DNA of 64,000 nt, taken from Rhodothermales bacterium (GTDB taxonomy: Bacteria; Bacteroidota; Rhodothermia; Rhodothermales; JANQRZ01). Positions within the stretch are counted from its first letter, which is position 1, and every line of letters begins with the position of its first letter. Location: contig JBDUXZ010000005.1 of the NCBI GenBank assembly GCA_039944855.1, positions 500,676-564,675 on the forward strand, in the 5' to 3' direction. Below, piece by piece: positions 36,997 through 64,000 of the stretch. The notes under the pieces were generated by a model. The model saw nothing but the letters and a program-made list of their open reading frames with translations. It did not search any database and was not told the DNA's origin. The position numbers were made by a program, and so were the translations under genes.

Positions 36997-38616
36997 ATGA
37001 AGAACATTCGCTACGTATTCCTCATGCTGTTCGTCCTCGCGCCGACGCTCGCCGTCGGGCAGGCCGAACCCGACAGCGTCGTTGTCGAGATCGCCGGGAC
37101 CCAGTACCCGTCCCTGGCTGCTAGCTTCGGCCCGCAGTTCGTCCTCGGCGAGAACATCGGCCCGCTCCCGCTCGTCCCCGTCGTGTCTCAGGCGACGGGC
37201 GAGTTCCCCGACGCGCCCCCGGCCGAGGGTTGCAACCCCCTCACCGCCGAGAGCGCGGCTGAAGTCGCTGGCAACATCGCGTTCGTCGAGCGCGGCGTGT
37301 GCCCCTTCGTCGCGAAGGTGCAGAACGCCGCCGCCGCCGGCGCCGTCGCCGTCGTCGTCTTCAACGACGAGCGCGAAGGGCCCGACAGCGAGACCATCAC
37401 CATCATGGGTGGTGACTGCACGGCGGAGCAGGGCTGCGACATCCCCGCTACCTTCGTCTCCCGCGCGAGCGGGCTGGCCATCGGCACCGAGATCAAGTTC
37501 GGCGAGGAGGCCACGATCATCCCGATCCGCATCACGGCTCCCCCGCCGCCCGCCTCCGTTGGCACGCACAACACGGGCGTGGTCACGTTTGACGTGTTCG
37601 ACTACGGCTTCCTCGGTGGCGACGTCTCGTTCGCTGGCAACGGCTTCCAGTTCAACGGCGTCAACGGCCTCTTCGTGAGCTCCGTGCTCGTCGGCATCGA
37701 CGGCAACGTCGTGTCGAACCCGTACGACGGTGCCTCCGAGTGGACGGACGTCCAGGACGTCGAGACCCTCGCGGCTCCGTTCCCGGCTCCGTTCGATGAC
37801 TTCGACGCCGGCTTCATCGCCGTCTTCGAGAACACGGACATCGGCATCCGCGTGACCGAGCGCTCGTACTCCCGCGCCGACGACCCGTTCGTGTTCGTCG
37901 ATCTCGAGGTGCAGAACATCTCCGGCAGCGACATCGCGGAAGCCTTCATCGGCCTCTTCGCTGACTGGGATGCGGGCACGACGTCGACCGACGATGCTGG
38001 GGTGGTTGACCTGGACCTCAACTTCGTCGGCGTCTTCGACCCGGTCGAGGCGAACCCGTGGTTCGGCGTCGCTGCGATCGGTGACCCGGGCTCCCTCTCC
38101 GGCTTCAGCGTGGACGCCACGACGGCCGACGACGCGCAGCTCTTCGAGGCGCTTACGACGCAGATCGACGGTGGTGGAGATCCCGCCGAGCGGGCTGCGG
38201 TCGCTGGTGTCGGTCCGTTCGCGATTGCGGCCGGCACGGCCGTCGTCGTCCGGTTTGCCTACGTCGGCGGTGCCGACCAGGCTGACCTCGCGGCGAACGT
38301 AGCCGCAGCGCAGGAGCTTGGCGCCGTCGCGGTCGAGGAGACCACGCCGGAAGGCACGTTCGTCCTTGAGTCGGCGTACCCGAACCCCGTCGCGTCCCGC
38401 GCGACGATCGGGTTCGAGCTGCCCACGGCGCAGGACGTCCGCCTCACCGTCTACGACGTGCTCGGCCGTGAGGTCGCGACCCTCGTCGACGGCGTCCGCC
38501 AGGCCGGCGCGCAGTCGGTCGAGCTCGACGTTGCTAGCCTCCCGAGCGGTGTGTACGTCTACCGCCTCAGCGCGGGGGCCACGCAGCTCACGCAGACGCT
38601 CACCGTCGTTCGGTAG
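36997..38616 (+). CDS. secreted PA-domain protein with T9SS C-terminal sorting domain
   Basis: Signal MKNIRYVFLMLFVLAPTLAVGQA. PA-like VAGNIAFVERGVCPFVAKVQNAAAAGAVAVVVFN. C-terminal AYPNPVASRATIGFELPTAQDVRLTVYDVLGREVATLV...GVYVYRL (Por/T9SS CTD). Confidence 0.85.
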   Translation: MKNIRYVFLMLFVLAPTLAVGQAEPDSVVVEIAGTQYPSLAASFGPQFVLGENIGPLPLVPVVSQATGEFPDAPPAEGCNPLTAESAAEVAGNIAFVERGVCPFVAKVQNAAAAGAVAVVVFNDEREGPDSETITIMGGDCTAEQGCDIPATFVSRASGLAIGTEIKFGEEATIIPIRITAPPPPASVGTHNTGVVTFDVFDYGFLGGDVSFAGNGFQFNGVNGLFVSSVLVGIDGNVVSNPYDGASEWTDVQDVETLAAPFPAPFDDFDAGFIAVFENTDIGIRVTERSYSRADDPFVFVDLEVQNISGSDIAEAFIGLFADWDAGTTSTDDAGVVDLDLNFVGVFDPVEANPWFGVAAIGDPGSLSGFSVDATTADDAQLFEALTTQIDGGGDPAERAAVAGVGPFAIAAGTAVVVRFAYVGGADQADLAANVAAAQELGAVAVEETTPEGTFVLESAYPNPVASRATIGFELPTAQDVRLTVYDVLGREVATLVDGVRQAGAQSVELDVASLPSGVYVYRLSAGATQLTQTLTVVR

Positions 38617-42392: not shown

Positions 42393-44006
42393 GTGCGCCC
42401 CGACGCCGTTTACCCCCCGCCGCCAACGCTCGCCGCCGTGCACGAAACGATCGTCATCCTCGACTTCGGCTCGCAGACCACCCAACTCATCGCCCGCCGC
42501 GTGCGCGAGGCCGGGGTCTACTGCGAGATCCACCCCTGCACCGCTCCGCTCGACGAGATCACGGCGCTGAAACCTATGGGCGTCATCCTCTCCGGCGGCC
42601 CGAACTCCGTCTACGACGAGGGCGCGCCCGACCTCGACCCTGAACTCCTCGCGCTCACGACGGGCGACGGCGGCTTCGTCCCCGTCCTCGGGATCTGCTA
42701 TGGCCTGCAGGCGATTGCCCACGAGCTCGGCGGAAGTGTGGAGCGGGCGAACCGGCGCGAGTTCGGCCGCGCCCACCTCATCGTCGACGAAGAGGCCGAG
42801 TTGTTCACGGACATTCCCGACGGCGCGACGGTGTGGATGAGCCACGGCGACCACCTCACGCGGCTGCCCGACGGCTTCCGCACGATCGCCCACACCGAGA
42901 ACGCCCCCATCGCTGCCGTCGCCGCTGCCGATCAGCCGATCTACGGCGTGCAGTTCCACCCCGAAGTCGTCCACACCGAGCCGGGGCGGAAGCTGATCGA
43001 GAACTTCGTCTACCGGGTGTGCGGGTGCAAAGGCGACTGGTCGGCGGCCTCGTTCATCGAAGACAAAAAGCGCGAAATCCAGAACGAAGTCGGCGAGGAC
43101 CACGTGATCCTCGGGCTCAGCGGCGGCGTCGATTCGTCCGTCGCGGCCGTGCTCCTGCACGAGGCCATCGGCGACGGGCTGACGTGCGTGTTCGTCGACA
43201 CCGGCCTGCTGCGGAAAGACGAGCGGGCCGAGGTCGAGCAGACCTTCCGCGAGCACTTCCACATCGACCTCATCGTCGTCGACGCGCGCGACGAGTTCAT
43301 GGACGCGCTTGCCGGCGTCGAGGACCCGGAGCAGAAGCGGAAGATCATCGGGCGGACGTTCATCGAGGTCTTCGAGGACGCGACCGAGGCCGTGACCGAG
43401 CGGCTCGGGACGAAGCCGAAGTTCCTCGCGCAGGGCACGCTCTACCCCGACGTAATCGAGAGCGTGTCGTTCAAAGGCCCGTCCGCGACGATCAAGAGCC
43501 ACCACAACGTCGGCGGCCTCCCCGAAGAGCTCGGGTTCGACTTGCTGGAGCCGTTCCGCGAACTGTTCAAAGACGAAGTCCGCGAGGTCGGCCGCCTCCT
43601 CGGCGTGCCGAAGAAAATCATCGGGCGGCACCCGTTCCCCGGCCCCGGCCTCGCCGTCCGCATCCTCGGCGCCGTCACCGCCGAGCACGCCGCGCTCTTG
43701 CAGGAGGCCGACGCCATCTTCATCGACGAGCTCAAAGCGCACGGGCTCTACGACGAGGTCTGGCAGGCGTTCGTCGTCCTGCTCCCGGTGCAGTCGGTCG
43801 GGGTGATGGGCGATGCGCGGACGTACGAGAACGCCGCCGTCCTCCGTGCCGTGACGTCCGTCGACGGCATGACGGCCGACTGGGCGCACCTCCCGTACGA
43901 CTTCCTCGGGGCCGTCTCGAACCGGATCATCAACGAGGTGCGCGGGATCAACCGCGTCGCCTACGACATCTCCTCCAAGCCGCCCGCCACGATCGAGTGG
44001 GAGTAG
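42393..44006 (+). CDS. guaA: glutamine-hydrolysing GMP synthase
   Basis: [36 protein letters not shown] and a C-terminal ATIEWE. The true start may be the in-frame GTG at 42438. Confidence 0.93.
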
Positions 44007-44049
44007 CTTACGTCCTTTCTGCCGCCCCCGGACCCCTTCTCCCGTCGCC

Positions 44050-45477
44050 ATGCTGATGCACCGTCTCGCCCTGCTCGCTCTGCTGCTGCTGATCGCCGTG
44101 CCCGCCGTGGCACAGCCGATGGAGGCGCCCGCGATCCCGGCGGCGCAGACGGTATTCGACAGCGGGCTCCGCTCGTATCAGGTCGGGCAGTACGGGGCCG
44201 CCGCGCAGAGCTTCGGCCGGGCCGCCAATGACTTCGAATACCACCAGCAGACGACGGCCGCGCGGCTGATGCTGGGGAAGGCGCTCTACGCGGCGGGTAA
44301 TCTCGAAGGGGCGGCCTCGGAGATGACGGCGTTCCTCCGGGCGTACCCGAAGAGCCGCTACGTGGACGATGCCCGTGCCATCCGCCGCGCTGCGGAGAGC
44401 CGGCTCGAAGCTCTCGCGGCCGTGCCTGACCCGACTGATGTTGGCATCGCGCTGCCGATGAGCGATACGGACGTGGTGTTCACGCAAGCCCTCTTCAACG
44501 GTGTCCGCCTCGCCGTCGACGAGCACAACGCGGCCGGGCCGGCGCAGCCCATTCGGATGGTCTTCCGTGACACGCAAGGGACGGAGCGCGGGGCGACGGC
44601 GGCGGTGGAGAGCCTCGCGGGATCGGGCGTCGAACTCGTCATCGGGCCGCTCTACAGTGAGGAGGCTGTGGCAGCGGGCGCGGCAGCCGAGCGCGAGCGC
44701 GTCGTCCTCATCGCGCCGCTCGCGACGGAGGAGCGCGTGTCCGAGGGCCGGCGCTACGTCTTCCAGGCGAACCCGACGTTTGACCAGCGCGGGCGGGCGA
44801 TGGCGCGCTTCGTCGCCTCCGCAGATCCCAGCCGCCGCGTTGGCGTGATCGCTCGCGTGGGCACGTTCGGGACCACGATGGCGGCGTCGTTCCAGGACGA
44901 GTTCGAGCGGCTCGGCGGGACGGTGCCGTTCGTCGAGCTACTGCCCAACGAGGGGGCGTGGTTCCGCCTCCCCGAGATCCTCGGCGACAGCCTGGAGATG
45001 GTCGACGCGCTCTACCTCCCGGTCTCCGGAGCCAAGGCGCCGGACGCGGCGGCGGGCGCGCTCCGCGGCCTCGACCAGATGCTGCCCGAGGGCGAGCGCG
45101 GCCGGATCCGCGTGTTCGGCAACACGGAGTGGGGCCAGCTCGACGCCTCGCGCCAGCGGGCCAGCCAGTACGGGACGGCGTTCACATCGGACTTCCACGT
45201 AGACGAGCGCGGCGCGGCGGCCTCGGCCTTCGTCGAGCGGTACCGCACGTTGGCCGGCGTCGCGCCGGACCGGCTCGCTTACGCCGGGTACGACATCACG
45301 AAGATGGCGCTGGCGCAGCTCGGCGAGCGGCGTTCCGAGGAATCGCTCGCGGAGACGATGCGTGGTGCTCGGCCGTACGAAGGGCTCGGCCATAGGATCT
45401 ACTTCGGCGGCGGCTCGGTGAACGAGGCCATGTTCATCCTCGGCTTCCGAGACGGCCGCCTCGTGGTGATCGAGTAG
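44050..45477 (+). CDS. secreted protein with an N-terminal TPR-like region and a type-I periplasmic-binding (Leu/Ile/Val-binding-like) domain
   Basis: Signal MLMHRLALLALLLLIAVPAVAQ. Helical repeats GQYGAAAQSF...LGKALYAAGNLEGA, then VGIALPMS...VELVIGPLYSEEA...VGVIAR. The function is not assignable. Confidence 0.68.
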   Translation: MLMHRLALLALLLLIAVPAVAQPMEAPAIPAAQTVFDSGLRSYQVGQYGAAAQSFGRAANDFEYHQQTTAARLMLGKALYAAGNLEGAASEMTAFLRAYPKSRYVDDARAIRRAAESRLEALAAVPDPTDVGIALPMSDTDVVFTQALFNGVRLAVDEHNAAGPAQPIRMVFRDTQGTERGATAAVESLAGSGVELVIGPLYSEEAVAAGAAAERERVVLIAPLATEERVSEGRRYVFQANPTFDQRGRAMARFVASADPSRRVGVIARVGTFGTTMAASFQDEFERLGGTVPFVELLPNEGAWFRLPEILGDSLEMVDALYLPVSGAKAPDAAAGALRGLDQMLPEGERGRIRVFGNTEWGQLDASRQRASQYGTAFTSDFHVDERGAAASAFVERYRTLAGVAPDRLAYAGYDITKMALAQLGERRSEESLAETMRGARPYEGLGHRIYFGGGSVNEAMFILGFRDGRLVVIE

Positions 45478-45676
45478 TGGGGGTATGGGTGTGTGGGAGT
45501 GAGATCACGTCCACGCCTCCACACGTCGCGCCCCAGCGGCAATAATCCCGTTCGCGGTGGCGTTCTGAAGCGACGAGTTCCCGCGCTTTTCAACCCGTGA
45601 GCGCGGGCTCTTCGTCCCGCCGGTGGTTTCTTACGTCCCTTCTGCCGGTCTCTCCCGTTCTGCTACCGCCGCCCTC

Positions 45677-46483
45677 ATGACGCTCCGATCCACGCTGCTC
45701 CTCCTGTTCATCGCGCTCGCCGCCGGCTGCTCCAGCGGCGGCCGGATCGACGCCGAGACGCCGGAGGCCTCCTTCGAGAAGGGGCTCGCGCTGTACGAGC
45801 GCGGCAAGTACGTGCGCGCCGTGGAGTACTTCCAGCACGTCTTCGACTTCGGCCGCACGAACCCGCACGCCGCCGACGCGCAGTACTACCTCGCGAAGGC
45901 GTACTTCGAGGACGAGCAGTTCCTCCTCGCCGCGAACGAGTTCACGCGCTTCGTCGAACTCTACCGGGGCGACGAGCGGGTGGAGGAGGGGGCGTATCTC
46001 CGGGCGATGAGCTACTACGAGCTGTCGCCGCCGTACCAACTCGACCAGACCGACACGGAGACGGCGCTGACGTACATCCGCCTCTACCTCAGCACCTATC
46101 CAAACGGCGAGCACGCGGCCGAACTGGGAACGATCACGGAGGAGCTCCGCGCGAAGCTGGCGAAGAAGCAGTTCGAGATCGCCGAGCTGTACGAGCGGCG
46201 CGAGCTGTTCGAGGCCGCCGCGATCTCGTTTGAGCAGGTGCTGGAGAAGTATCCCGACTCCAGTTACGCCGACGACGCCCTCCTCGGCGCGATTCGCAAC
46301 TACGCCGCCTTCGCCGAAGCCAGCATCCCCCAGCGGCAGCAGGAGCGCTACCAGCTTGCTGCGACGGCGTACGAACGGCTCGTCCAACTCTTCCCCCAGA
46401 GCCCGCTGCTCGGCGAGGCCGAGGTCGCTTACGCGGAAGTGGACCGCGCGCTCGAACGCTTCCGGGACCAGGCCAGCCGGTAA
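45677..46483 (+). CDS. bamD: outer membrane protein assembly factor BamD
   Basis: From ATG 45677: MTLRSTLLLLFIALAAGCSS (lipobox). FEKGLALYERGKYVRAVEYFQ and AQYYLAKAYFEDEQFLLAANEF. Confidence 0.85.
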   Translation: MTLRSTLLLLFIALAAGCSSGGRIDAETPEASFEKGLALYERGKYVRAVEYFQHVFDFGRTNPHAADAQYYLAKAYFEDEQFLLAANEFTRFVELYRGDERVEEGAYLRAMSYYELSPPYQLDQTDTETALTYIRLYLSTYPNGEHAAELGTITEELRAKLAKKQFEIAELYERRELFEAAAISFEQVLEKYPDSSYADDALLGAIRNYAAFAEASIPQRQQERYQLAATAYERLVQLFPQSPLLGEAEVAYAEVDRALERFRDQASR

Positions 46484-52994: not shown

Positions 52995-54058
52995 GCGCGC
53001 TCCGCATCCTCGTCACGGGCGTGGGCGCACCCGGCATCCGTGGCACGCTCTACGCGCTGCGGCAGGGCGACCGGCCGATCTACACCGTCGGGACGGACCT
53101 CAGCGAGCGCGCCGTGGGCCGCCTGCTCACCGACGCGTTTTACACCGTTCCGCCGCCGGAGGCACCGCACTACCTCGACGCGCTCCGGCTCATCTGCCGC
53201 GCCGAACGCATCGACGTGCTGATCCCGCAGACGACGCGCGAGATCGCCGTGCTCTCGCGCTTCCGCGACGACTTCGGCGACACCCGCGTCCTCGTGAGCG
53301 GGGCGGACGCCGTCGCGGCGGCGAACGATAAAGGCGCGGTGCTGCAGGCGTTCGAATCGCTCGGCCTGCCGGTCCCGGCGTATCGCACGACGCAGAGTGA
53401 GAGCGAGTTGATCGAAGCTGCCGAAGCGCTCGGCTATCCCGGGCGCGCGGTGGTCGTGAAGCCGCCCGTGTCGAACGGGATGCGCGGGCTCCGCGTGCTG
53501 CGCGAGGGGGCGTGGGACACCCGCCGCTTCCTCGCCGAGAAACCGAGCGGGATTGACCTCGCGCTCGACGACCTACTCGCCATCTTCCGGCGAGGGCAGG
53601 AGCGCGGCGACGACTGGCAGGCGCTGCTCGTGACCGAATACCTGCCCGGCCCCGAATATTCCGTCGATGCCTTCCGTGGGAGCCGGTTCGCCGTCGCCCT
53701 CCCGCGCCGTCGCGACGCGGTCCGCAGCGGGATCTCGTTCGAGACGACGGGGCTGCCCGAGCGCGCCGACCTCATCGAACCGACGCTGCGGGCGGCCGAG
53801 CACCTCGGGCTGGAATACGCCTTCGGCTTCCAGTTCAAAGACGACGCCGACGGCGCGCCGAAGGTGCTGGAGTGCAACCCGCGCGTGCAGGGGACGATGG
53901 TGGCGAGCGTCTTCGGCGGCGTCAACCCGATCTGGCTCGGCGTGCAGGAAGTGCTCGGCGAGCCGCCCGACGCCCTCCCCGCACCGCCGGAAGCCACGTT
54001 CTTTCAGCGATACTGGGGCGGGATCGGCATGCGCGGCGACAGCGCCTTCGAGATATGA
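52991..54058 (+). CDS. ATP-grasp ligase (pre-ATP-grasp Rossmann plus ATP-grasp fold)
   Basis: From GTG 52991, overlapping the upstream TGA (GTGA): RILVTGVGAPGIRGTLYAL, AVVVKPPVSNGMRGLRVL, LVTEYLPGPEYSVD and VLECNPRVQGT. Confidence 0.8.
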   Translation: MSALRILVTGVGAPGIRGTLYALRQGDRPIYTVGTDLSERAVGRLLTDAFYTVPPPEAPHYLDALRLICRAERIDVLIPQTTREIAVLSRFRDDFGDTRVLVSGADAVAAANDKGAVLQAFESLGLPVPAYRTTQSESELIEAAEALGYPGRAVVVKPPVSNGMRGLRVLREGAWDTRRFLAEKPSGIDLALDDLLAIFRRGQERGDDWQALLVTEYLPGPEYSVDAFRGSRFAVALPRRRDAVRSGISFETTGLPERADLIEPTLRAAEHLGLEYAFGFQFKDDADGAPKVLECNPRVQGTMVASVFGGVNPIWLGVQEVLGEPPDALPAPPEATFFQRYWGGIGMRGDSAFEI

Positions 54059-54684
54059 CCGACCTCTTCGCCGGCCGCGTCCTCTTCCACTGCCACACGA
54101 GTCACACCGATGGGCGGCCGACGGTGGACGACTACGTCTGCTACGCCGCCGAGCACGGGATCGAGCGCGTCGTCTTCCTCGAACACATCCGCCGCGTGCC
54201 GAGCTACGACGTGCCCGCGTTCGCCGACGAGGTGCGCGCGAGCGGCGAGCGCCACGGCGTTCCGACGAACGTCGGGTTCGAAGCTAAAGTGCTGCCGGGC
54301 GGCGAACTCGACATCGCGGACGAGCACCTCGCCCTCGCGGATGTGACCGGGATCGCCGAGCACGGATTCCCGGACGACGCGGCGTTGTGGGAGGCGTCGC
54401 TCCGGCAGGCGTTCGAGACGTACGGTGGCGATGCCGCGCGCCCGGCGGTGTGGGTCCACCCCGGCCTGTGGCTCCGAAAGACGCGGCGGCTTGACGCGCT
54501 TCGCGGCACGTACGAAGCCCTGCTCGGCGCGGCGCAAGACGCGGGCGTGTTCGTCGAGCAGAACGCGCGCTACGGCCTGCTCACCGACGACGACCGCGCG
54601 CTCGTTCGCCCCGCATCGCTCGTGCGCGGTGCCGACGCCCACCGCCTCGCCGACGTCGCCGCGTTTTTCGACGCGACGGGCTGA
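54055..54684 (+). CDS. PHP-family metal-dependent phosphoesterase (HisJ-like)
   Basis: From ATG 54055, overlapping the upstream TGA (ATGA): VLFHCHTSHTDG, RVVFLEHI, GFEAKV and GADAHRL. Confidence 0.65.
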   Translation: MTDLFAGRVLFHCHTSHTDGRPTVDDYVCYAAEHGIERVVFLEHIRRVPSYDVPAFADEVRASGERHGVPTNVGFEAKVLPGGELDIADEHLALADVTGIAEHGFPDDAALWEASLRQAFETYGGDAARPAVWVHPGLWLRKTRRLDALRGTYEALLGAAQDAGVFVEQNARYGLLTDDDRALVRPASLVRGADAHRLADVAAFFDATG

Positions 54685-54685
54685 G

Positions 54686-55462
54686 CTACTGCATCATCCG
54701 CTTCCCGACTTCGAGGATCACCTTCTTCGGCACGAAGCGGGTGGCGAAGGCCATGACGCTGTTGAGCGCGCCGCTGACCGTCGATCGCTCGTTCTTCAGG
54801 AGCGCTTCGAGGCCGACGCGGGCGACCTTCTCCGGCGTCTCGGCGGGGCGACCGCCCGGGGCTCCGTCCATGTCGGCTGCATCGAAGAAGCCCGTGGACG
54901 TCGGGCCGGGGCAGAGGGCGGTGACGGCGACGCCTGTGCCAGCGACCTCGGCGTGGAGGGCCTCAGTGAACGAGAGGACGAACGCCTTCGACGCGGCGTA
55001 GACGGCGAAGTGGGGGACGGGCTGGAAGGCGGCCGTCGAGGCCACGTTGAGCACGCCGCCCGTGCCGCGCTCGATCATCGCCGGGAGGAACAGCCGCGTG
55101 AGCGCGACGAGGTTCGTCACGTTCAGCGTCACCATCGACTCGTACACCCCGGCCTCGTAGTCGAGGAACGCGCCGAGCTTCCCGAAGCCGGCGTTGTTGA
55201 CGAGCACGTCGACCTCGTGGCCGGCGGCGGTGACTTTGTCGAAGAGCGCCTGCGCCGCGCCCGGCGTGCCGAGGTCGTGGGCGATGACGGTCGCTTCGCC
55301 GCCGCGGCTGCGGAACTCGTCGGCGAGCGCGTTCAGGCGACCTTCGGAACGGGCGGAGAGGAGGACGTGGGCGCCGTCGCGAGCGAGCTGCCGGGCGATG
55401 GCTTCGCCGATGCCGAGCGAGGCGCCGGTGACGAGGACGGTGCGGCCGTGGTACGAAGTCAT
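54686..55462 (-). CDS. SDR-family oxidoreductase
   Basis: From ATG 55462: MTSYHGRTVLVTGASLGIGEAIA, NNAG and YAASKAF. It is convergent with the PHP gene, with 1 nt between stops. Confidence 0.88.
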   Translation of the reverse strand: MTSYHGRTVLVTGASLGIGEAIARQLARDGAHVLLSARSEGRLNALADEFRSRGGEATVIAHDLGTPGAAQALFDKVTAAGHEVDVLVNNAGFGKLGAFLDYEAGVYESMVTLNVTNLVALTRLFLPAMIERGTGGVLNVASTAAFQPVPHFAVYAASKAFVLSFTEALHAEVAGTGVAVTALCPGPTSTGFFDAADMDGAPGGRPAETPEKVARVGLEALLKNERSTVSGALNSVMAFATRFVPKKVILEVGKRMMQ

Positions 55463-55575
55463 TACCAAAAGGGGGAGAGGAGGGGAGCCCGCGATTGGGC
55501 AGAGGAGACGTATGTTATCTGGCGTGGTCTTCTATTCCCCGAACCGGCCCGTTTGATCCCATCTCGTTTGATCCC

Positions 55576-56457
55576 ATGACGACCCGGCGAGCCCTCTTGG
55601 ACGAAGCGGCGGTGCGGCTTTCCGACGCCGGCATCGAAAACGCCCGGCGCAACGCCGAGTGGATGCTCGAAGGTGCGCTCGGCCTCGACCGCACGACGCT
55701 CCTCGCGAACCTCGGCGAGCCGGTGACGGCCGAGGAGCGCGCGGCGTTCGACGCCCTTGTCGCGCGCCGCCTCGGCCGCGAGCCATTGCAATACGTCGTC
55801 GGCCACGCCGATTTCTACGGGCTCCGGCTCCGCGTGACGCCCGCCGTGCTCATCCCACGCCCCGAGACCGAGGAGGTCGTCGAAGCCGCACTCGGGCACC
55901 TCCGGGCCGTGAAAACGCCCTGGGTCCTCGATATGGGGACGGGCAGCGGCGCGATCGCGCTCGCTCTCAAGCACGAGCGGCCCGACGCCGAGGTCTTCGC
56001 CTGCGACATCTCCGAGGACGCCCTCGCGATTGCCGCCCACAACGCCGAGCGGCTCGCCCTCGACGTGTCGTTCGTCCACGCCGATGCCCTCGCGCCAGCC
56101 TTCGTCGAGGGTGTCCCCGCGTGCTTCGACGCGCTCGTCTCGAACCCGCCCTACGTCCCCGACGGCGAGGCCGCGACGCTCGAACCGGAGGTCCGCGACT
56201 TCGAGCCGTCGGCGGCCCTCTTCGCGGGCGACGACCCGCTCCTGCACTACCGCGCCATCACCGGCCACGCCGCGCGCGTGCTCAAGCCCGGCGGCCTCCT
56301 CCTCTTCGAGACCCACACCGACTACGCCGACGCCGTCTGCGCGCTCCTCGCCGAGAGCGGCTACACCGACACCGCCGTGAAATCCGACCTCTCCGGCCGC
56401 CCCCGCATCGTGTGGGGCTGGAAGGGCGACGAGGTTCGAGCGACGAACGGCGAGTGA
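55576..56457 (+). CDS. prmC: peptide chain release factor N5-glutamine methyltransferase
   Basis: From ATG 55576: EPLQYVVGHADFYGL, LIPRPETE, LDMGTGSGAIA and VSNPPYV. Confidence 0.9.
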   Translation: MTTRRALLDEAAVRLSDAGIENARRNAEWMLEGALGLDRTTLLANLGEPVTAEERAAFDALVARRLGREPLQYVVGHADFYGLRLRVTPAVLIPRPETEEVVEAALGHLRAVKTPWVLDMGTGSGAIALALKHERPDAEVFACDISEDALAIAAHNAERLALDVSFVHADALAPAFVEGVPACFDALVSNPPYVPDGEAATLEPEVRDFEPSAALFAGDDPLLHYRAITGHAARVLKPGGLLLFETHTDYADAVCALLAESGYTDTAVKSDLSGRPRIVWGWKGDEVRATNGE

Positions 56458-56482
56458 TAAACGACGGTTATGCCACCTGCCG

Positions 56483-56896
56483 ATGATTCTCGCGCCACAC
56501 CAGCTTCCTTTCGCCTCCGCCGCGATCTTCGGCGTGGCCGCTCTCGCGTTCTCGTTTGCCCCTCTGCTCTTCGACGAGTTTGCTCTTCCCGTTGACTCAG
56601 CGCTGATCGCGCTTTTCGCCGTTCCGCCAGCCCTCCTCGGGGGCTACTTCGCGGGGCGCCATCTCAGCGCGGAAGCGCACGTCGCAGGCCGAGTCTACTT
56701 CGCGCTCACTGGCGCGCTCGTCGCTGTACTGTCGGCGCTCACCGCTGCGGTTTTCCTGTTGGCCTTGCTCTTCGCTTCGGAGGGGTTTGAATCTGTCCTT
56801 CCTGCGCTCGGCTACGGTATGGCATTCGGGCTTCTCGCTTCGCCGTTCGGTACCGTTGCCGGTCTGCTCCTTCGCCCACTCGCGCCAGAGTGCTAG
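56483..56896 (+). CDS. hypothetical membrane protein (137 aa, about 4 TM)
   Basis: Hydrophobic segments are present throughout. It has more T-ending codons than its neighbours. No family was recognised. Confidence 0.55.
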   Translation: MILAPHQLPFASAAIFGVAALAFSFAPLLFDEFALPVDSALIALFAVPPALLGGYFAGRHLSAEAHVAGRVYFALTGALVAVLSALTAAVFLLALLFASEGFESVLPALGYGMAFGLLASPFGTVAGLLLRPLAPEC

Positions 56897-56951
56897 TTCC
56901 CAGCCGCAGAACCCGCTCTCTGTCGCAGGCCGGCCGCACGCGTGCTCCCCG

Positions 56952-57863
56952 CTATCCCATCGCGCCCTGCGCCATGGCGGCAGCTTCGCGGAATAGGATC
57001 GCGTGGAGGTCGGCGGTCTCCTCGGGCGTCGCCGCGTAGCCGCCGGAGAGGAGGAGGCAGAGCGGCAGTCCCCGCTCCAGCACGGACTCGATGACGAAGC
57101 GGTCGCGCGCCGCGATCCCTTCGCGCGAGAGGGCGAGCCGGCCGAAGCGGTCGTCGCGCCGCACGTCGATGCCGCCGAGGTAGAACACGAGGTCGGGCGC
57201 GGTAGCGTCGAGCACGCCGGGCAGGTGGCGGGCGAGCGTGGCGAGGTAGTCGGCGTCGCCGGTGCCGTCGGGGAGGGGCACGTCGAGCGAGGAGGGCGGC
57301 TTGCGGAAGGGGTAGTTCTTCGCGCCGTGCATCGAGAACGTGAACACGGCCGGGTCGTCGGCGAAGAACGCGGCGTTGCCGTTGCCCTGATGCACGTCGA
57401 GGTCGACGATGAGCGCGCGGCGGAGCCAGCGCGAGCGTTCGAGCACGCGGATGGCGACGGCCACGTCGTTGAGCACGCAGAAGCCCTCGGCGTGGCCGGG
57501 CATGGCGTGGTGCGTCCCACCGGCGAGATTCCCCGCGAGCCCGTCGTGGAGCGCCATGAAGGCGGCGTTGATCGTCCCCTGCACGGCGAGGCGGGAGCGG
57601 CGCACGAGCGCCGGGCTCCACGGCAGCCCCATCCGCCGCTCCTCGTGGCGGCTCTGCGTCCCCGTCGCCAGCTTGTCGAGGTAGCTGCGGGTGTGGACGA
57701 GCAGCAGGTCTGACCAGTCGGCCTCGCGCGGCGCGATCACCTCGTCGGGCCGGATGAGGCCTTCGGCGAGCAGGAGCCGGTGCAGCGCCGGGAATTTCCC
57801 CATCGGGAACGGGTGGCGCGGCGGGAGCGGGACGAAATAGTCGGGGCCGTACGAGACGCGCAT
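56952..57863 (-). CDS. histone deacetylase-family (class II-like / AcuC-type) deacetylase
   Basis: From ATG 57863: MRVSYGPDYF..., AGGTHHAMPGHAEGFCVLNDVAVA, IVDLDVHQGNG and GGID. The track start at 57905 reads through a repeat arm. Confidence 0.85.
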   Translation of the reverse strand: MRVSYGPDYFVPLPPRHPFPMGKFPALHRLLLAEGLIRPDEVIAPREADWSDLLLVHTRSYLDKLATGTQSRHEERRMGLPWSPALVRRSRLAVQGTINAAFMALHDGLAGNLAGGTHHAMPGHAEGFCVLNDVAVAIRVLERSRWLRRALIVDLDVHQGNGNAAFFADDPAVFTFSMHGAKNYPFRKPPSSLDVPLPDGTGDADYLATLARHLPGVLDATAPDLVFYLGGIDVRRDDRFGRLALSREGIAARDRFVIESVLERGLPLCLLLSGGYAATPEETADLHAILFREAAAMAQGAMG

Positions 57864-57872
57864 GGGGCAGAG

Positions 57873-58123
57873 GTCGTGGGTTAGAGGTTCTGGGTCCGGG
57901 GTCACAACTCACAACCTCCTGCTCTATTGAGAAGCTCGAAGGGATGTCATCCTGAGCGGAGGCCGCAGGCCGGAGTCGAAGGATCTTTCCGGGGAAGACC
58001 GCAGCAGGCTGTCGAAACTGTGCCCGCAGAGATCCCTCGGCTCCACTCCGTTCCGCTCGGGATGACAACGTGGAGAGTTTCTCAACAGAGCAACGACCTC
58101 TAACTCACGACCCCGAACCTCCC
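57873..58123. repeat. ~250-bp nested inverted-repeat (long imperfect hairpin) element
   Basis: Four arm pairs were found. 57873..57889 pairs with 58095..58111 (GTCGTGGGTTAGAGGTT vs rc GTCGTGAGTTAGAGGTC). 57920..57933 pairs with 58079..58092 (TGCTCTATTGAGAA vs rc TGCTCTGTTGAGAA). 57946..57959 pairs with 58053..58066 (GTCATCCTGAGCGG vs rc GTCATCCCGAGCGG). 57972..57985 pairs with 58031..58044. The right arm includes the last codons and stop of the glycosyltransferase gene. Confidence 0.8.
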
Positions 58124-59367
58124 AGCAGGCGGCGGTAGACCGCGTGGAAGCGCTCCGTATCGCGCTCGGGCCGGAAGGTTTCGAACACGGCCGGCGCGTT
58201 CGCCGCCCACCGTGCCCGCGCCGCCTCGTCGCTCAGCGCTCGCCGGATCGCCGCCGCGAGGCCGTCGCGGTCGTACGGGTCCACGACGAGACCCACGTCG
58301 AAGCCGTCCACGACGCGCCGCATCTCGGGGATGTCCGCGACGACGACGGGGAGCCCGGCCGTGAGGTACTCGAACAGCTTGTTCGGGAGCGCGAGCCGGA
58401 TACTCTCCGTGATCGGCTCCGGCACGTGCACGCCGAGGTCGGCCGATGCCGTGAGGCGGAGGAGGTCGTCGGGCGGCGTGTGGGGGAGGAAGTGGGCGCG
58501 GCCGGGGAGTGCGTCGACGGCGAACCGTTGCAGGTCGGCCTTCGTCGGCCCGTCGCCGATGACGACGAGTGCGGCGTCCGGCACGTCGCGCATCCCATCG
58601 ACGAGACGTTCGAGCCCGCGCCCGGCGCGGACGAGGCCCTGATAGAGCACGATCCGCTGCGACGCGGGAATGCCGAGCCGCTCGCGCAGGGCATCGCTCC
58701 GCTCGACGGTCTGCCGCGCGGGCACGTTGTGCGTCACGATCGGCCGCGCGATGCCGTACGTCGCCGCCATCCGGTCGGCGATGCTGTCGTTGACCGTGAG
58801 CACGGCGTCGGTGCGGGGCAGGAAGCGGTGCTCGACGGCCGTCCACGCCCACCGCGCCCACGGCTTCCCGGCCGTCGCGTCGACGTGCGGATACAGCTCG
58901 CGCGCGTCGAGCAGAAGCTTCGCATCGTGGCGACGGGCGGCGGCGGCGAGGGCGGGGAGGACATAGAGGTCGCTCGCGTGATACACCGAGGCCGGGCGGG
59001 CGAGCACCGCGCGCAGAAACAGCCGGTGCGCCTGCCAGAAGAAAAGTGGCCCGCGCCCGCTCGGCCGGGGCAGCACGTGCAGCCGCACGCCGTCGGCGAT
59101 CTCGCCGGGCACCGGCTCCGGCCCGAACGTCAGCGCGTCGACGCGGAGGCCGAGGTCGTCGAGCGCCCGCAGTTGCCGCAGCGCTCGCGACGACGCCCGC
59201 ACGTCGCCGACGAGCGCGAACACGATGTCGGGCGGCGAGGGGACAAGGGGGGGAGAAGCCACGGGGACGGGGCAGCGGGCGGCGACGTAGCCGCGAGACA
59301 AGGGGTAGCGCAGCGGGCGGCGAATATACGTTGTTGAAACAATTGGCGGGATACGGGGTGCTTGCAT
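58105..59367 (-). CDS. GT4-type (GT-B) glycosyltransferase
   Basis: LLLDARELYP, IVLYQGLVRAGRGLERLV, and PNKLFEYLTAGLPVVVADIPEMRRVV, an E-x7-E-like region. The N-terminus is uncertain; the in-frame GTG at 59262 is a more compact start. Confidence 0.8.
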   Translation of the reverse strand: MQAPRIPPIVSTTYIRRPLRYPLSRGYVAARCPVPVASPPLVPSPPDIVFALVGDVRASSRALRQLRALDDLGLRVDALTFGPEPVPGEIADGVRLHVLPRPSGRGPLFFWQAHRLFLRAVLARPASVYHASDLYVLPALAAAARRHDAKLLLDARELYPHVDATAGKPWARWAWTAVEHRFLPRTDAVLTVNDSIADRMAATYGIARPIVTHNVPARQTVERSDALRERLGIPASQRIVLYQGLVRAGRGLERLVDGMRDVPDAALVVIGDGPTKADLQRFAVDALPGRAHFLPHTPPDDLLRLTASADLGVHVPEPITESIRLALPNKLFEYLTAGLPVVVADIPEMRRVVDGFDVGLVVDPYDRDGLAAAIRRALSDEAARARWAANAPAVFETFRPERDTERFHAVYRRLLGGSGS

Positions 59368-59449
59368 GACGTTCCAAATGGGGCCGGACGAACAGGTGGA
59401 CGCATCGCCGTCCCCGTAGCCGCCTTCGACTTTTTACGTTCAGCGTTGC

Positions 59450-61039
59450 ATGGATAAGCGTAGCATCTTCATCGGGATCGGCGTGCTCATCGCGGGCATC
59501 GTGCTCGGGGTTCTCATCGTGACGGTCGTGCGCCCGGACGCGCAGGACGTCAGCCTTTCCGACGCGACCCCGCCGCTGGAACGGCCGCCCGTCGCCGAGC
59601 CCGTCCGCATCGGCGACCCCGATCCGCCGCCGCCCCTGGCCGTGCCCGAGCTGATGTCGCTGAACAGCCTCTTCAAAGGCGTATCGAGCCGCGTCACGCC
59701 GACCGTCGTGTTCATCGAGGTCGAGATGCCGGCCGACGGGCGGATGGGGCCGGCCCTCGACGACTGGCACCCGCGCGTCCAGCCCCGCCGGTTCCGCCGG
59801 AGCGCGGGCAGCGGCGTCATCATCTCGCCGCTCGGCTACGTCGTTACCAATTCCCACGTCGTCGCCGGGGCCTCCAGCATCCGCGTCCTCCTCAACGACA
59901 AGCGCGAGTTCGACGCCGAGGTCATCGGCGAGGACCCGACGACGGACCTCGCCGTGATCCAACTCCTCGACGCCGACGACCTCCCCGTCGCCGCGCTCGG
60001 CGACTCCGACGAGATCGAGGTAGGCGAATGGGTCCTCGCCGTCGGCAACCCGTTCCGGCTGACCTCGACGGTGACGGCCGGGATCGTGAGCGCGCTCGGG
60101 CGGCAGGTCGATATCATCGAAGACGACTTCCGCATCGAAGACTTCATCCAGACTGACGCCGCCATCAATCCCGGCAACTCCGGCGGCGCGCTCGTCAACC
60201 TCCGCGGCGAAGTCGTCGGCGTCGCCACGGCGATCGCGACGGAGAGCGGGTCGTACGAGGGCTACGGGTTCGCCGTCCCGGTTAACCTCGTCACGCGCGT
60301 CGTCACCGACCTCATCGCCTACGGCGAGGTGCAGCGCGGCTACCTCGGCGTCGAGATCCGCGCCGTCACCGCCGCCGACGCCGACCGGATGGGGCTCGAC
60401 CGGATCGCCGGCGTCTACGTCTCGAAAGTCGCCGACGACGGCGCGGCGCAGCGCGCCGGCCTCCGCACGGGCGACGTCCTCCTCGCCATCAACGGGCAGG
60501 AGATCGACGCGCCGAACCAGTTCCAGAGCGCGATCGCCCTCCGCCGCCCCGACGAAGACATCCGCCTCGGTGTGTGGCGGCGCGGCGAGCGGCGCGACTT
60601 CGAGGCGCGCCTCATCGGGCGCGACAACGTGGCGCTCCAGAGCTGGGTCGCCGAGATCAACGGCCGGAACCCGGACTTCCCCGCCGCGCCCGAAACCCGC
60701 CCGCCCAACCCGTTTCACGACGACCTCGACCTCTACGAACTCGAAGCGTGGGGCGTCGGGCTCCGCGATCTCACGGAGGAGGAGCGTGAAACCTTCGGGG
60801 TCGAGGGTGGCGCGTACGTCGCGTTCGTGCGGCAGGGCGGCGCGGCCTCGGCCGACGGTCTGCCCGCCGGTACTGCCCTGACCGAGATTGAAGGGGAAGC
60901 CATCGGCTCGGCCGAAGACGCGACGGCTGTCCTCGACCAAGTCGCCGAAGCGGGGGAGACCGCGCTCGTCCGCGTCCTCCGCAGCGACGGCGTGACGGCG
61001 TACTACGACCTCGAGTCTCCGGCGTACGCCGAGCAGTAA
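59450..61039 (+). CDS. htrA: Do/HtrA-family periplasmic serine endoprotease with two PDZ domains
   Basis: N-terminal TM, GSGVIISPLGYVVTNSHVV, TDLAVIQL, TDAAINPGNSGGALVN, and two PDZ-like segments GVYVSKVADDGAAQRAGLRTGDVLLAINGQ and GAYVAFVRQGGAASADGLPAG. Confidence 0.9.
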   Translation: MDKRSIFIGIGVLIAGIVLGVLIVTVVRPDAQDVSLSDATPPLERPPVAEPVRIGDPDPPPPLAVPELMSLNSLFKGVSSRVTPTVVFIEVEMPADGRMGPALDDWHPRVQPRRFRRSAGSGVIISPLGYVVTNSHVVAGASSIRVLLNDKREFDAEVIGEDPTTDLAVIQLLDADDLPVAALGDSDEIEVGEWVLAVGNPFRLTSTVTAGIVSALGRQVDIIEDDFRIEDFIQTDAAINPGNSGGALVNLRGEVVGVATAIATESGSYEGYGFAVPVNLVTRVVTDLIAYGEVQRGYLGVEIRAVTAADADRMGLDRIAGVYVSKVADDGAAQRAGLRTGDVLLAINGQEIDAPNQFQSAIALRRPDEDIRLGVWRRGERRDFEARLIGRDNVALQSWVAEINGRNPDFPAAPETRPPNPFHDDLDLYELEAWGVGLRDLTEEERETFGVEGGAYVAFVRQGGAASADGLPAGTALTEIEGEAIGSAEDATAVLDQVAEAGETALVRVLRSDGVTAYYDLESPAYAEQ

Positions 61040-61088
61040 GCCCGCGCCGTCTCGTTCGTCTCATCTCTCGCTCTGCTCCCTTCCCCCG

Positions 61089-62291
61089 ATGATCCGTTAT
61101 CTCACCGCCGGCGAGTCGCACGGCGAGGCGCTCATCGGGATCGTCGAAGGGATGCCGGCCGGCGTCCCCGTCACGGCCGCCGACCTCGATGAACACCTCG
61201 CGCGCCGTTGGCTCGGATACGGGCGCGGCGGTCGGGCGAAGATCGAGCGGGACCGCGTGCACATCTATTCCGGCGTCCGCTTCTCGCACACGCTCGGCAG
61301 TCCGATCGCGCTCCGGCTCGACAACGCGGCGTACCAGAAAGACCGCGCGGGCTGGCCCGAGGCGATGGCCGTCGAAGGCTCGGGCGTAGGCGTCGAAAAG
61401 GTCACGCTTCCCCGGCCCGGCCACGCCGACCTCGTCGGCGTGCAGAAGTACGGGTTCGACGACATCCGCCCCGTCATCGACCGGTCGAGCGCGCGGGAGA
61501 CGGCGATGCGCGTCGCGTGCTGCTCGCTCGCTCGCGTCCTCCTCCGCCACCTCGGCATCGAAGTCGGCAGCCACGTCGTCCGCATCGGCGAGGTCGGGTA
61601 CGACGGGCCGGAGGACTGGCAGGACCGCGTCGCCGCGCTCGTCGAAAAAGGCGGCGCACGCGCGCTCTACGAAGCCGCCGACGCCGACGAGGTCCGCATG
61701 CTCGACGCCGACCTCTCGGCCGCATGCATCGACCACATCAAGGCCACGAAGAAGGCGGGCGACTCGCTCGGCGGCGTCTACGAAGTCGTCGTGACGGGCG
61801 TGCCGCCCGGCCTCGGGTCGTACGTCCACTGGGACCGACGGCTCGACGGCCAGCTCGCGCAGGCGATCCTCTCGATCCAGGCACAGAAAGCCGTCGAGAT
61901 CGGCGACGGGTTCGCGGGCGGCTCCCGCCCCGGCTCGCAGTTCCACGACCCGATCACGAAAGAGAACGGGCAGTTCCGCCGGACGAGCAACCACGCCGGC
62001 GGGATCGAAGGCGGCGTCTCGAACGGGATGCCGATCGTCGTGCGCGGCACGATGAAGCCGATCCCGACGCTCATCCGGCCGCTCGGCTCCGTCGACCTCG
62101 CCACCGGCGAGCCGCAGCCGACGCGCTACGAGCGGAGCGACGTCACGAGCGTCCCCGCCGCGAGCACCGTCGCCGAGGCCACCGTTGCCCTCGTGATCGC
62201 GAATGCCGTGCTCGAAAAGTTCGGCGGCGATTCGCTCGACGAACTCCGTGCCCGGTTCGAGGCACTCGACGAAGGTGGGTTTGGGCCCTGA
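61089..62291 (+). CDS. aroC: chorismate synthase
   Basis: MIRYLTAGESHGEALIGIVEGMPAG, RPGHADL, SARETA and GGIEGGVSNG. Confidence 0.95.
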   Translation: MIRYLTAGESHGEALIGIVEGMPAGVPVTAADLDEHLARRWLGYGRGGRAKIERDRVHIYSGVRFSHTLGSPIALRLDNAAYQKDRAGWPEAMAVEGSGVGVEKVTLPRPGHADLVGVQKYGFDDIRPVIDRSSARETAMRVACCSLARVLLRHLGIEVGSHVVRIGEVGYDGPEDWQDRVAALVEKGGARALYEAADADEVRMLDADLSAACIDHIKATKKAGDSLGGVYEVVVTGVPPGLGSYVHWDRRLDGQLAQAILSIQAQKAVEIGDGFAGGSRPGSQFHDPITKENGQFRRTSNHAGGIEGGVSNGMPIVVRGTMKPIPTLIRPLGSVDLATGEPQPTRYERSDVTSVPAASTVAEATVALVIANAVLEKFGGDSLDELRARFEALDEGGFGP

Positions 62292-62379
62292 GCCTTTGCC
62301 TCGCCCGATGCACCGAGCGGTTGCGGCCCCACCCGATTGCTCAGGCAGGGCCGCGACGATAGCTCGACTACGTCGCTGC

Positions 62380-62571
62380 TCAGGAGGGATCGTCGGTCGG
62401 ATCGCCGCCGGGGGCGAAGATCACAGCATCCTCCGTCCCCAATCCTGGCCCCCCGGTTACCTCGTGCAAGACGCCGAGTTGCTCTAGTGTGGGAGGCTCG
62501 AAGGACTTTCGCAGCGGAGGTCGAGATGTCGTGGATTGTGCAAGGGTCGTCGGAGCGTTCGAGGTGGACAT
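62380..62571 (-). CDS. candidate lasso-peptide-type RiPP precursor (63 aa), orphan
   Basis: MSTSNAPTTLAQSTTSRPPLRKSFEPPTLEQLGVLHEVTG|GPGLGTEDAVIFAPGGDPTDDPS. Residues F24-x-x-P27-x-L29-x3-G33-x5-T39-x fit the lasso leader motif Y-x-x-P-x-L-x3-G-x5-T-x. The putative core starts with Gly and has Glu7/Asp8 available for ring closure. Codon usage is atypical (many A/T-ending codons) and there is no SD. Coding status is unproven. Confidence 0.4.
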   Translation of the reverse strand: MSTSNAPTTLAQSTTSRPPLRKSFEPPTLEQLGVLHEVTGGPGLGTEDAVIFAPGGDPTDDPS

Positions 62572-62616
62572 GACGTAAAGGGGGTTGTCGGAGAGGCGTG
62601 GGGGGCGGAAGAGGAT

Positions 62617-62659
62617 GGCGGCCCCGCTTCGCCTCGTGGGGAGACGACGCGGGGCCGCC
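62617..62659 (-). terminator. strong hairpin after the T9SS-cargo gene (terminator-like, weak T-run)
   Basis: Perfect 11-bp arms GGCGGCCCCGC / GCGGGGCCGCC with a 21-nt loop. On the minus strand it is followed by ATCCTCTTCC. It lies 45 nt upstream of the candidate peptide ATG. Confidence 0.45.
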
Positions 62660-62666
62660 CGTCTGG

Positions 62667-64000
62667 CTATCGGATGATGGTGAGGAGCTGCGTGGCGGCG
62701 AACGCGGACCCGGCGGGGCCCGCCGTCATCCTGACGAGATACGTCCCTGCCGCCAACGTCGACGCTTCGAGCACGGCCTCGTGGCGTCCCGCCTCCACGG
62801 CTTCGTCGAGGAGCACGGCGACGGTGCGCCCGAGCACGTCGTAGACCACGACGCGGACCTTCGCCGCCTCGGGCACCTCGACGCCGAGCGTGGTGTGCGC
62901 GGAAAGCGGGTTTGGGTAGGCCGCTCCGAACGCGTACGTCGTCGGGAGCGCGCCGGCCGTCCGCGCCGCCACCTCCTCCTCAGCCGCCGCGATCATCGCC
63001 GCGTGGTCGAGCGTCGCCGGGCTCTCGACGACTCCGCCGTTCCGCGCCGACGCGCACTGGCTCTGCGCAAAGGGGTGGAGCCGCGCCGTCTCGTACTCCG
63101 TGCAGTAGCGCTGCTGCGTCGCCGCATCGACGTGGAAGAACCCGTAGACCGTCCCGCCCGAGAGGTAGACGAGCGACGTTACGATGTCGGGCTGGACCGC
63201 CGGGATCGACGTGCCCACCGCCAGCGGCTCGCGGTTGACCACGGCGAGGCCGGAGAACGTGTCACGGAGCACGACGCCGGTGGGGACCGACACCGTCGCG
63301 CCCGGAGCGAGCACACCCGAGGGCGGTGCAGCGAAGTACACGTTCTGGTAGGTGGCGGCGACGGAGCACGAAACCTCGGCGAAGTCGATGGGGGCGGAGC
63401 CGACGTTCTTCAGTTCGATGAACTCCGAGCCGGTCGAGGCGAAGTCCGAGACGATGAGGGCCTCGGGGCAGGGGCCGGGCTCGGCCGTGTCGCAGGCGTC
63501 GCCGATGCCGTCCTCGTCGCTGTCCGCCTGGTCCGGGTTTGGCGTAGCGGGGCAGTTGTCGTCGGCGTCGGGCACGCCGTCGCCGTCGTCGTCGGGCGCG
63601 CTGGTGATTTCGACGTTTACTTCGTAGGTGGCCGCTGCCTGCGCGACCGTTCCCTCATCGTTCTGGGCCGTCCACGTGGCCTCGCGGACGTAGACGTTCG
63701 GAATCGTGGGCGCGGTCACGAAAATGCCGACGGAGACGCTCTGCCCCGGTTCTAGTGTAAACCCCAAGTTGCTCAGCACCGTCCCCGCTGCCGAGTCCGT
63801 GAGGTCGTGGATCGTCAGCGGCACGTCGCCGGTGTTCTCGACGGCGTACCGCACCACCAACTCCTCTCCCGGGGCCGCCGTCACGCTGGCCTCCGACACG
63901 GTGCAGGTGCCCGGGTCCGCGGGGTCCGAGCAGTTCGCGGTCGCTACACGGCCGACCCTGACATCGAGGGCGATGGCCGCACTGGAGAGGTCGAACACGT
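62667..64000 (-). CDS. secreted protein with thrombospondin type-3-like Asp repeats, a lamin-tail-like domain and a T9SS C-terminal sorting domain (5' end outside window)
   Basis: DDDGDGVPDADDNCPATPNPDQADSDEDGIGDACD, LIVSDFASTGSEFIELKNVGSAPIDF, and the C-terminal AYPNPLSAHTTLGVEVPEAAKVRVVVYDVLGRTVAVLL...GTYLVRM. The frame is open to the window edge. Confidence 0.8.
   Translation of the reverse strand, partial: VFDLSSAAIALDVRVGRVATANCSDPADPGTCTVSEASVTAAPGEELVVRYAVENTGDVPLTIHDLTDSAAGTVLSNLGFTLEPGQSVSVGIFVTAPTIPNVYVREATWTAQNDEGTVAQAAATYEVNVEITSAPDDDGDGVPDADDNCPATPNPDQADSDEDGIGDACDTAEPGPCPEALIVSDFASTGSEFIELKNVGSAPIDFAEVSCSVAATYQNVYFAAPPSGVLAPGATVSVPTGVVLRDTFSGLAVVNREPLAVGTSIPAVQPDIVTSLVYLSGGTVYGFFHVDAATQQRYCTEYETARLHPFAQSQCASARNGGVVESPATLDHAAMIAAAEEEVAARTAGALPTTYAFGAAYPNPLSAHTTLGVEVPEAAKVRVVVYDVLGRTVAVLLDEAVEAGRHEAVLEASTLAAGTYLVRMTAGPAGSAFAATQLLTIIR

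Follow-up and report, generated by a model that had tools for sequence, protein, structure and literature searches.

A conserved gene for a probable lasso-peptide precursor, standing apart from cyclase and kinase genes, in a Rhodothermales bacterium

Lasso peptides of the paeninodin/pseudomycoidin group are marked by the gene order cyclase, precursor, kinase (C-A-K), an HPr-type kinase, a PF14907 nucleotidyltransferase and a strictly C-terminal Ser in the precursor, and this Ser is phosphorylated by the kinase (PMC9266682, PMC6993621). Phosphorylated lasso precursors have also been described from the bsf cluster of Bradymonas sediminis and from related Acidobacteria/Sphingomonadales clusters; they carry YxxPxL at positions -17 to -12 of the leader and have Gly1 joined to Asp8, and phosphorylation in bsf is on Ser3, not on a C-terminal Ser (PMC10368454). 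Here we analysed a stretch of 64,000 nucleotides from a Rhodothermales bacterium (assembly GCA_039944855.1, contig JBDUXZ010000005.1, positions 500,676 to 564,675), hereafter the window. An open reading frame (ORF) of 63 codons on its minus strand, at 62380..62571, very probably encodes a homologue of lasso-peptide precursors. Judged from its relatives, the precursor type is that of the kinase-associated, C-terminal-Ser (paeninodin-like) clade. The family is an addition from Rhodothermales, and the literature searched contained no described lasso peptide and no substantive lasso link for this lineage, in agreement with a preliminary description of the same DNA, which had called lasso peptides poorly documented there. 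A remote lasso precursor was not reported in the literature searched either.

The ORF starts with ATG and its 63-aa product is MSTSNAPTTLAQSTTSRPPLRKSFEPPTLEQLGVLHEVTGGPGLGTEDAVIFAPGGDPTDDPS; the interval 62380..62571 includes the stop codon. It is housed in a 375-bp spacer (62292-62666) bounded by the stop of aroC (62291) and the stop (62667) of a Por_Secre_tail gene, which encodes a cargo protein of the type IX secretion system (T9SS). The preliminary description had placed a 63-codon minus-strand ORF in a spacer of lower GC between these two genes, and both the coordinates and the composition were confirmed (GC 0.61-0.69 in the spacer versus ~0.72 in the surroundings). The leader peptide is predicted as residues 1-40 (62452..62571, minus strand), the first 22 of which are variable in the family alignments. 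Its recognition motif, residues 24-40 (62452-62502, minus strand), reads FEPPTLEQLGVLHEVTG and has F24 at -17, P27 at -14, L29 at -12 and T39 at -2, counted from G41; the motif positions -17, -14, -12 and -2 agree with those in PMC10368454. The predicted core of 23 residues, GPGLGTEDAVIFAPGGDPTDDPS (62383..62451, minus strand), has G1, E7, D8 and F12, the last suggested as a putative steric plug in the preliminary description, and the precursor C-terminus is ...DDPS. G1 and D8 are the predicted isopeptide partners, and by analogy with the kinase-associated group the C-terminal Ser23 is the predicted phosphorylation site. Calculated monoisotopic masses of the 23-mer are 2165.975 Da (dehydrated, -H2O, as in the lasso) and 2245.942 Da (with one phosphate).

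The composition of the ORF is unusual for its surroundings. The GC content at third codon positions (GC3) is 0.67 versus ~0.90 in the neighbouring genes, which bears out the A/T-ending codon bias remarked on earlier, and a codon-usage model trained on the window rated the ORF as non-coding (log-odds of -0.30 per codon versus +0.33 for the neighbours). The product had zero Pfam matches, and an Rfam scan of 61900-63000 returned zero RNA families.

Motif matching alone would say little about such an ORF. The leader pattern by itself was matched ~0.9 times per mononucleotide-shuffled window, whereas the full grammar (leader, G1, D/E at 7-9 and a short tail) was matched 0.02 times per shuffled window. 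Homology, not motif grammar, is what we regard as decisive for the identity of the ORF. A word-based search of 5.8 billion proteins found two metagenomic homologues, P0001 and P0002, of 61 and 58 aa, respectively. Their C-terminal 23 residues are nearly identical to those of the window ORF, while the N-termini and flanks are divergent; the motif F-x-P-P-x-L-E-x-L-G-x-L-x-x-V-T-x-G is retained in all three. The DNA similarity of the window ORF to the homologues begins at the ORF and ends shortly past the stop codon. The reading frame, whose conservation in relatives had been raised in the preliminary description, is kept: pairwise comparison of the three copies over the 23 codons of the core gives 7-9 synonymous and 1-3 non-synonymous codon differences. 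When substitutions specific to the window copy were polarised by three relatives, four were synonymous and one was non-synonymous, and random mutation would be expected to give 26% synonymous changes. The sole non-synonymous change is at the variable -1 position. Judged from these comparisons, the window ORF is a real, conserved gene. Its core is almost identical in three unclustered copies (window, L001 and L002) that stand in three unrelated contexts, and these copies appear to be under strong purifying selection, a signal that rests on few substitutions.

An exhaustive search of 1.84 billion representative proteins with a profile built from the three sequences returned only nine proteins, eight of them peptides of 43-66 aa with the same layout and one a repeat protein of 199 aa. 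In the family alignment of 11 sequences (the window ORF, P0001, P0002 and the wider family P0003-P0011), P(-14), T(-2), G1, G5 and D8 are invariant, that is P27, T39, G41, G45 and D48 of the window product, and L29 and G33 are nearly invariant. The earlier reading of residues 24-40 as a lasso leader motif was thus borne out. Gly1 had been proposed together with Glu7 or Asp8 as the ring-closing acceptor; of these, G1 and D8 stood, and E7 (residue 47), which is variable in the family, did not. The C-terminal Ser is present in 10 of the 11 aligned members and in both peptides of L009 and L010. The NCBIfam lasso leader model NF033521 was matched by 8 of the 11 members (best E 2e-6), and no non-lasso family was matched. 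The window ORF itself matched NF033521 (lasso_leader_L3) over residues 25-41 (E = 0.029), scoring 14.4 bits where the cut-off is 19, and this was its only NCBIfam match. A precursor hidden Markov model (HMM) built from only five cyclase-adjacent peptides was run on the 935 six-frame ORFs of the window; the window ORF was found with E = 1.8e-16, and the runner-up had E = 1.9. A scan of 185,579 species-representative genomes with the pattern GT[EF]DA[VI]IFA gave zero family members, and a pattern scan of metagenome contigs derived from the family alignment gave no confirmed homologue. The precursor family is rare and was seen only in metagenomic contigs.

The 199-aa repeat protein (P0005) is an odd, multi-core-looking precursor. 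It consists of four tandem units, each with a lasso-leader-like YEPPxLxxLGxxxxLT followed by SDxRLKxDIxPL, and the latter matches the start of Pfam Peptidase_S74, the endosialidase intramolecular chaperone (E = 4.7e-8).

In five independent loci a family member is located directly downstream of an Asn_synthase-like gene. P0003 in L003 comes after an Asn_synthase-type gene, and the start of an HPr-kinase-like gene overlaps it; P0006 in L004/L005 follows a 655-aa GATase + Asn_synthase gene; P0004 in L006 has an Asn_synthase gene before it and an HPr-kinase-like gene after it; P0007 in L007/L008 follows an Asn_synthase gene; and a 56-aa peptide in L010 stands in the order C-A-K. The L004 cyclase scored 570.8 bits (cut-off 525) against NF033535, 'lasso peptide isopeptide bond-forming cyclase'. 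An HPr-kinase-like gene follows A directly in L003, L006, L009 and L010. Because the relatives combine a C-terminal Ser with HPr-kinase neighbours, the window ORF is best placed in the paeninodin-like phosphorylated group.

The closest named relative of the L004 cyclase is 60% identical and comes from a Rhodothermales metagenome-assembled genome (MAG; P0014). A scan of the species-representative genomes with P0014 found only distant relatives of at most 39% identity. Distant relatives of this kind were seen in named genomes (Runella, Pyrinomonadaceae and other Acidobacteria) as well as 80 metagenome loci, where the order is mostly B1-B2-C-A-K-(D)-N, with the PqqD and Transglut_core3 domains confirmed by Pfam. 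The Acidobacteria MAG loci L011-L013 are arranged as B1-B2-C-A-K-N, and the PF14907 nucleotidyltransferase (N) and the ABC exporter (D) are present in the more distant loci. B1 and B2 almost always precede C in the loci of related cyclases (L009, L011-L016, L023-L102), or follow it as in Runella. They are not found beside C in L003 and L004, which are high-GC and Rhodothermales-like, nor in L010 (55% GC). In Runella salmonicolor, a second pair of B1 and HPr-kinase-like genes (L016:19531-20755) occurs ~5 kb downstream of the main C-A-B1-B2-K cluster.

The preliminary description had seen no lasso cyclase, B1/B2 peptidase or exporter in the 64-kb window, and this was upheld by tblastn, iterative HMM searches and Pfam. 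With the ORF only 1.4 kb short of the window end, lasso genes were looked for over 62 kb on one side. tblastn of window 1-64000 with the cyclases and the kinase (E up to 10) gave noise only, and a cyclase was found in the window neither by HMM nor by Pfam. The iterative HMM searches for B1, B2, K and N, of which those for B1 and B2 were seeded from L012 and L014 and recovered both proteins in L009 and L011-L016, found none in the window, L001 or L002. PF05402 and PF13471 were absent among the window ORFs by Pfam. In all, no cyclase, B1, B2, kinase, nucleotidyltransferase or exporter was found in the 64-kb window, and Pfam assigned essentially all plausible genes of the window to housekeeping functions (topoisomerase, alpha-glucan cluster, EF-P, BirA, CoaX, BamD, GuaA, AccC, HtrA and aroC).

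The history of the locus can be followed by comparison with L003. The window T9SS gene shares 62% identity over its last 272 aa with the T9SS gene upstream of the L003 cyclase (E = 9e-86, tblastn) and 70% over 813 nt at the DNA level (blastn), the homologous part being 62670-63485 on the minus strand; other T9SS tails match at only 36-48% over ~90-117 aa. The A cores of the window and L003 share 74% nucleotide identity. Since both the T9SS gene and the A core are homologous to those of L003, the two loci are collinear. C (1.9 kb) and K are present in L003 and absent between and after the homologous parts in the window, which corresponds to T9SS, C lost, A, K lost. This alignment demonstrates that the window locus is a T9SS-C-A-K locus reduced by two genes, and the ORF stands alone because C and K are absent, with T9SS-A-aroC here versus T9SS-C-A-K in L003. 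The L003 cyclase gene (L003:7972-9909) is itself broken: its 1.9 kb run through frames 1, 2, 3 and 1 with at least three frameshifts, whereas the genes around it are intact over ~8 kb. A pseudogene is the probable reading, the alternative being a long-read assembly error. The lasso genes of L003 have GC3 of 0.63-0.75, and an adjacent native-looking gene has 0.91.

The nearest relative of the window, L022 (a 637-kb contig from the same sample as L003, ERZ25039483), shares 88-94% nucleotide identity with window 54000-62263 and nothing beyond (blastn). The collinearity ends ~28 nt before the aroC stop (window 62263-62291, L022:8274-8304), and the last aroC residues and the downstream sequence differ. 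The breakpoint between the window and L022 is at the peptide locus. The idea that the peptide is kept at the syntenic position in the nearest relative was rejected, as L022 is without a copy in 18 kb.

Other members of the family point to insertion elsewhere. The C-A pair in L004/L005 (L004:697-3298) and in L007/L008 is inserted between a Peripla_BP_6/TPR gene and bamD. In the window these genes are direct neighbours (43873-45474 and 45569-46480, with 44% and 52% identity, respectively), so window 45475-45568 represents the empty site of the L004/L007-type insertion. Three of the four closest loci have a T9SS cargo gene as the direct upstream neighbour of the peptide gene or of its cyclase (window 62667-63998, L002:585-2102 and L003:3286-7800). 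The T9SS genes of the window and L002 were considered as orthologues and rejected, since only the sorting tail matches, at 36%. Together these comparisons describe a small cassette of foreign composition that enters Rhodothermales genomes at various sites and erodes afterwards. The losses are B1/B2 beside C in L003, L004 and L010, K in L004 and L007, and both C and K in the window.

Whether the peptide is still matured in this organism, in trans, by enzymes encoded elsewhere, we judge to be evenly balanced. In favour of function, the ORF is intact and has kept the start codon, every family-invariant position and the terminal Ser, purifying selection appears strong among the three unclustered copies, the window-specific substitutions lean towards synonymous changes, and the flanking hairpins suggest a transcription unit of its own. 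During maturation, the B1 protein, a RiPP (ribosomally synthesised and post-translationally modified peptide) recognition element (RRE), would bind the 40-aa leader through F/Y(-17)-x-x-P(-14)-x-L(-12), and B2 would cleave after T(-2)-x(-1), x being G(-1) in the window copy. The cyclase would then adenylate Asp8 and join it to the amine of Gly1, giving an 8-membered ring around the tail AVIFAPGGDPTDDPS and so the putative lasso fold, while an HPr-kinase-like enzyme would phosphorylate the C-terminal Ser23 on the precursor. For pseudomycoidin, the cyclase can work without B1/B2 in heterologous hosts (PMC6993621), a precedent that bears on the B-less C-A loci seen here. A broader proposal is that Rhodothermales have a dispersed lasso pathway, with precursors under purifying selection scattered away from the cyclase, cyclase loci without B1/B2 and trans maturation across loci; this we offer only tentatively and would rather doubt. 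In a more radical variant, the conserved unclustered peptide would have a role that no longer needs the cyclase.

Several points weigh against maturation in trans. The selection signal comes from few substitutions, and its timing relative to the loss of C is not datable. All unique polarisable substitutions of the window copy are GC to AT. This bias and the atypical codon usage fit relaxed constraint or a recent arrival, and the match of the window ORF to NF033521 is below the curated cut-off (14.4 vs 19 bits). The broken L003 cyclase suggests that the cluster is decaying in the lineage, and the 18 kb of L022 obtained around the corresponding aroC region contain no homologue of the peptide. 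The 62 kb on one side of the ORF hold no maturation genes, and any cyclase elsewhere in the genome is hypothetical. Most of these points can be taken as signs of a young relic, a true precursor homologue from which C and K have been deleted and which nothing matures, intact since it is short and the loss is recent. A relic would accord with T9SS-A standing where L003 has T9SS-C-A-K, with at least three frameshifts in the L003 cyclase while its neighbours are intact, with lasso machinery not being found in the window, with the missing copy in L022, with the low GC3 (0.67 vs 0.90) and the GC-to-AT substitutions, and with B1/B2 having already gone from beside C in L003, L004 and L010. It is harder to reconcile with three unclustered copies in three contexts whose near-identical cores differ mostly at synonymous sites, with four synonymous changes versus one non-synonymous change on the window branch, or with the retention of all invariant positions, the start codon and the C-terminal Ser. 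We consider a relic a serious possibility, and a less probable one than maturation in trans.

The remaining explanations carry much less weight. The maturation genes could lie just outside the window, past 64000 and beyond the T9SS gene, in which case the precursor would not be a true orphan; in its favour, only 1.4 kb separate the ORF from the end, where the T9SS gene is truncated. Every related locus, however, has C and A on one strand with C as the immediate upstream neighbour, and past the homologous T9SS gene of L003 come a sigma-54 activator and a gene truncated at the locus end instead of lasso genes, which makes this unlikely. More improbable still is an exapted peptide that is made but needs no lasso form for its action, for instance a small one with a secreted or regulatory role tied to the T9SS cargo gene. 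Such a role would explain the T9SS gene directly upstream in the window, L002 and L003, the purifying selection without an adjacent cyclase and the leader-like motif in the non-lasso-looking repeat protein P0005, but conservation falls precisely on the residues required for leader recognition, cleavage and ring closure, a signal peptide-like segment is absent, and the T9SS genes of the window and L002 share the sorting tail only. As for a chance ORF that happens to fit the motif in a non-coding spacer, the frequency of the leader pattern in shuffled windows, the codon usage rated non-coding and the lack of any gene on record for the product (exact look-up) are what a chance ORF would give. It is excluded, with hardly any probability left to it, because homologues occur in unrelated surroundings, the conservation is limited to the ORF and the core differences are mostly synonymous; the precursor HMM score (E = 1.8e-16) and the rarity of the full grammar in shuffled windows also stand against it. 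Among the three origins that the preliminary description had left side by side (a precursor encoded away from its cluster, a remnant or a chance ORF), chance has thus fallen away, and a remnant or a precursor separated from its cluster is concretely supported by the cut-down T9SS-C-A-K locus.

The gene is flanked by two predicted hairpins. A GC-rich hairpin at 62617..62659, between the stop of the T9SS gene and the peptide start, has 19-nt arms that are 89% complementary and a folding energy of -42 kcal/mol (z = -4.2; as stable in 0 of 200 shuffles). It may act as a terminator, and no U-tract follows the stem. The other hairpin (62320..62357, 17-nt arms) lies where the peptide gene and aroC converge, in the 88 bp that separate their stops; the 94-nt segment folds at -50 kcal/mol (z = -3.3). 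Hairpins on either side of the ORF suggest that it is its own transcription unit. In 62200-62800, no sigma-70-like promoter and no canonical terminator were found.

The T9SS cargo gene (62667..63998, minus strand) has LTD, TSP_3 and Por_Secre_tail domains by Pfam and runs off the window end. aroC (61089..62291, plus strand) is the convergent neighbour; its best named relatives are from Rhodocaloribacter, Rhodothermus and Rhodothermales MAGs at 78-82%, and unnamed matches reach 90-94%, which identifies the host as a member of Rhodothermales. A second T9SS cargo gene, at window 36982-38613, encodes a PA domain and a Por_Secre_tail, and its tail is 44% identical to that of the L003 T9SS protein. 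Further away, a large cluster for alpha-glucan metabolism occupies window 2398-16799 and 21457-22989 and contains a TreS-maltokinase fusion, GlgE, a GlgB-like CBM48 enzyme, further GH13 amylases and a MalQ 4-alpha-glucanotransferase.

A RiPP precursor can stay intact and under selection after the cyclase has gone from its locus, as this gene would indicate. This is relevant to mining pipelines that require co-localisation and to the question of how RiPP clusters erode or disperse; if a dispersed pathway is true, it would be invisible to cluster-based miners such as RODEO and antiSMASH. The predicted 23-mer product, with its ring closed between G1 and D8 and its acidic tail ending in a Ser that could be phosphorylated, has defined masses and is therefore directly testable.

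In comparison with known systems, the window gene is closest to the paeninodin/pseudomycoidin type (padeCAKB1B2D and psmCAKB1B2ND, with the kinases PadeK, ThcoK, SyanK and PsmK). It shares the precursor length of ~60 aa and the strictly C-terminal Ser, and its relatives share the C-A-K order with an HPr-kinase-like K. The window core presumably also resembles that of paeninodin in length and in its acidic, Pro/Gly-rich tail. The window copy differs in that no C, K, B1, B2, N or D adjoins it; the known members are from Firmicutes or Proteobacteria, whereas the host here belongs to Rhodothermales and the peptide, with its predicted G1-D8 ring, is known from the gene alone. With the Bradymonas sediminis bsf cluster and its Acidobacteria/Sphingomonadales relatives (PMC10368454), the likeness is in YxxPxL at -17 to -12, the Gly1-Asp8 ring and the kinase in the cluster; unlike bsf, the window peptide carries Thr, the canonical residue, at -2 instead of Ile, and its gene is unclustered. 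The citrulassin PAD (PMC9266682) sets a precedent for a lasso pathway gene that acts from outside the cluster, but it encodes a tailoring enzyme and not a precursor. Against these systems, only the unclustered yet conserved state of the gene and the B-less cyclase loci are unusual.

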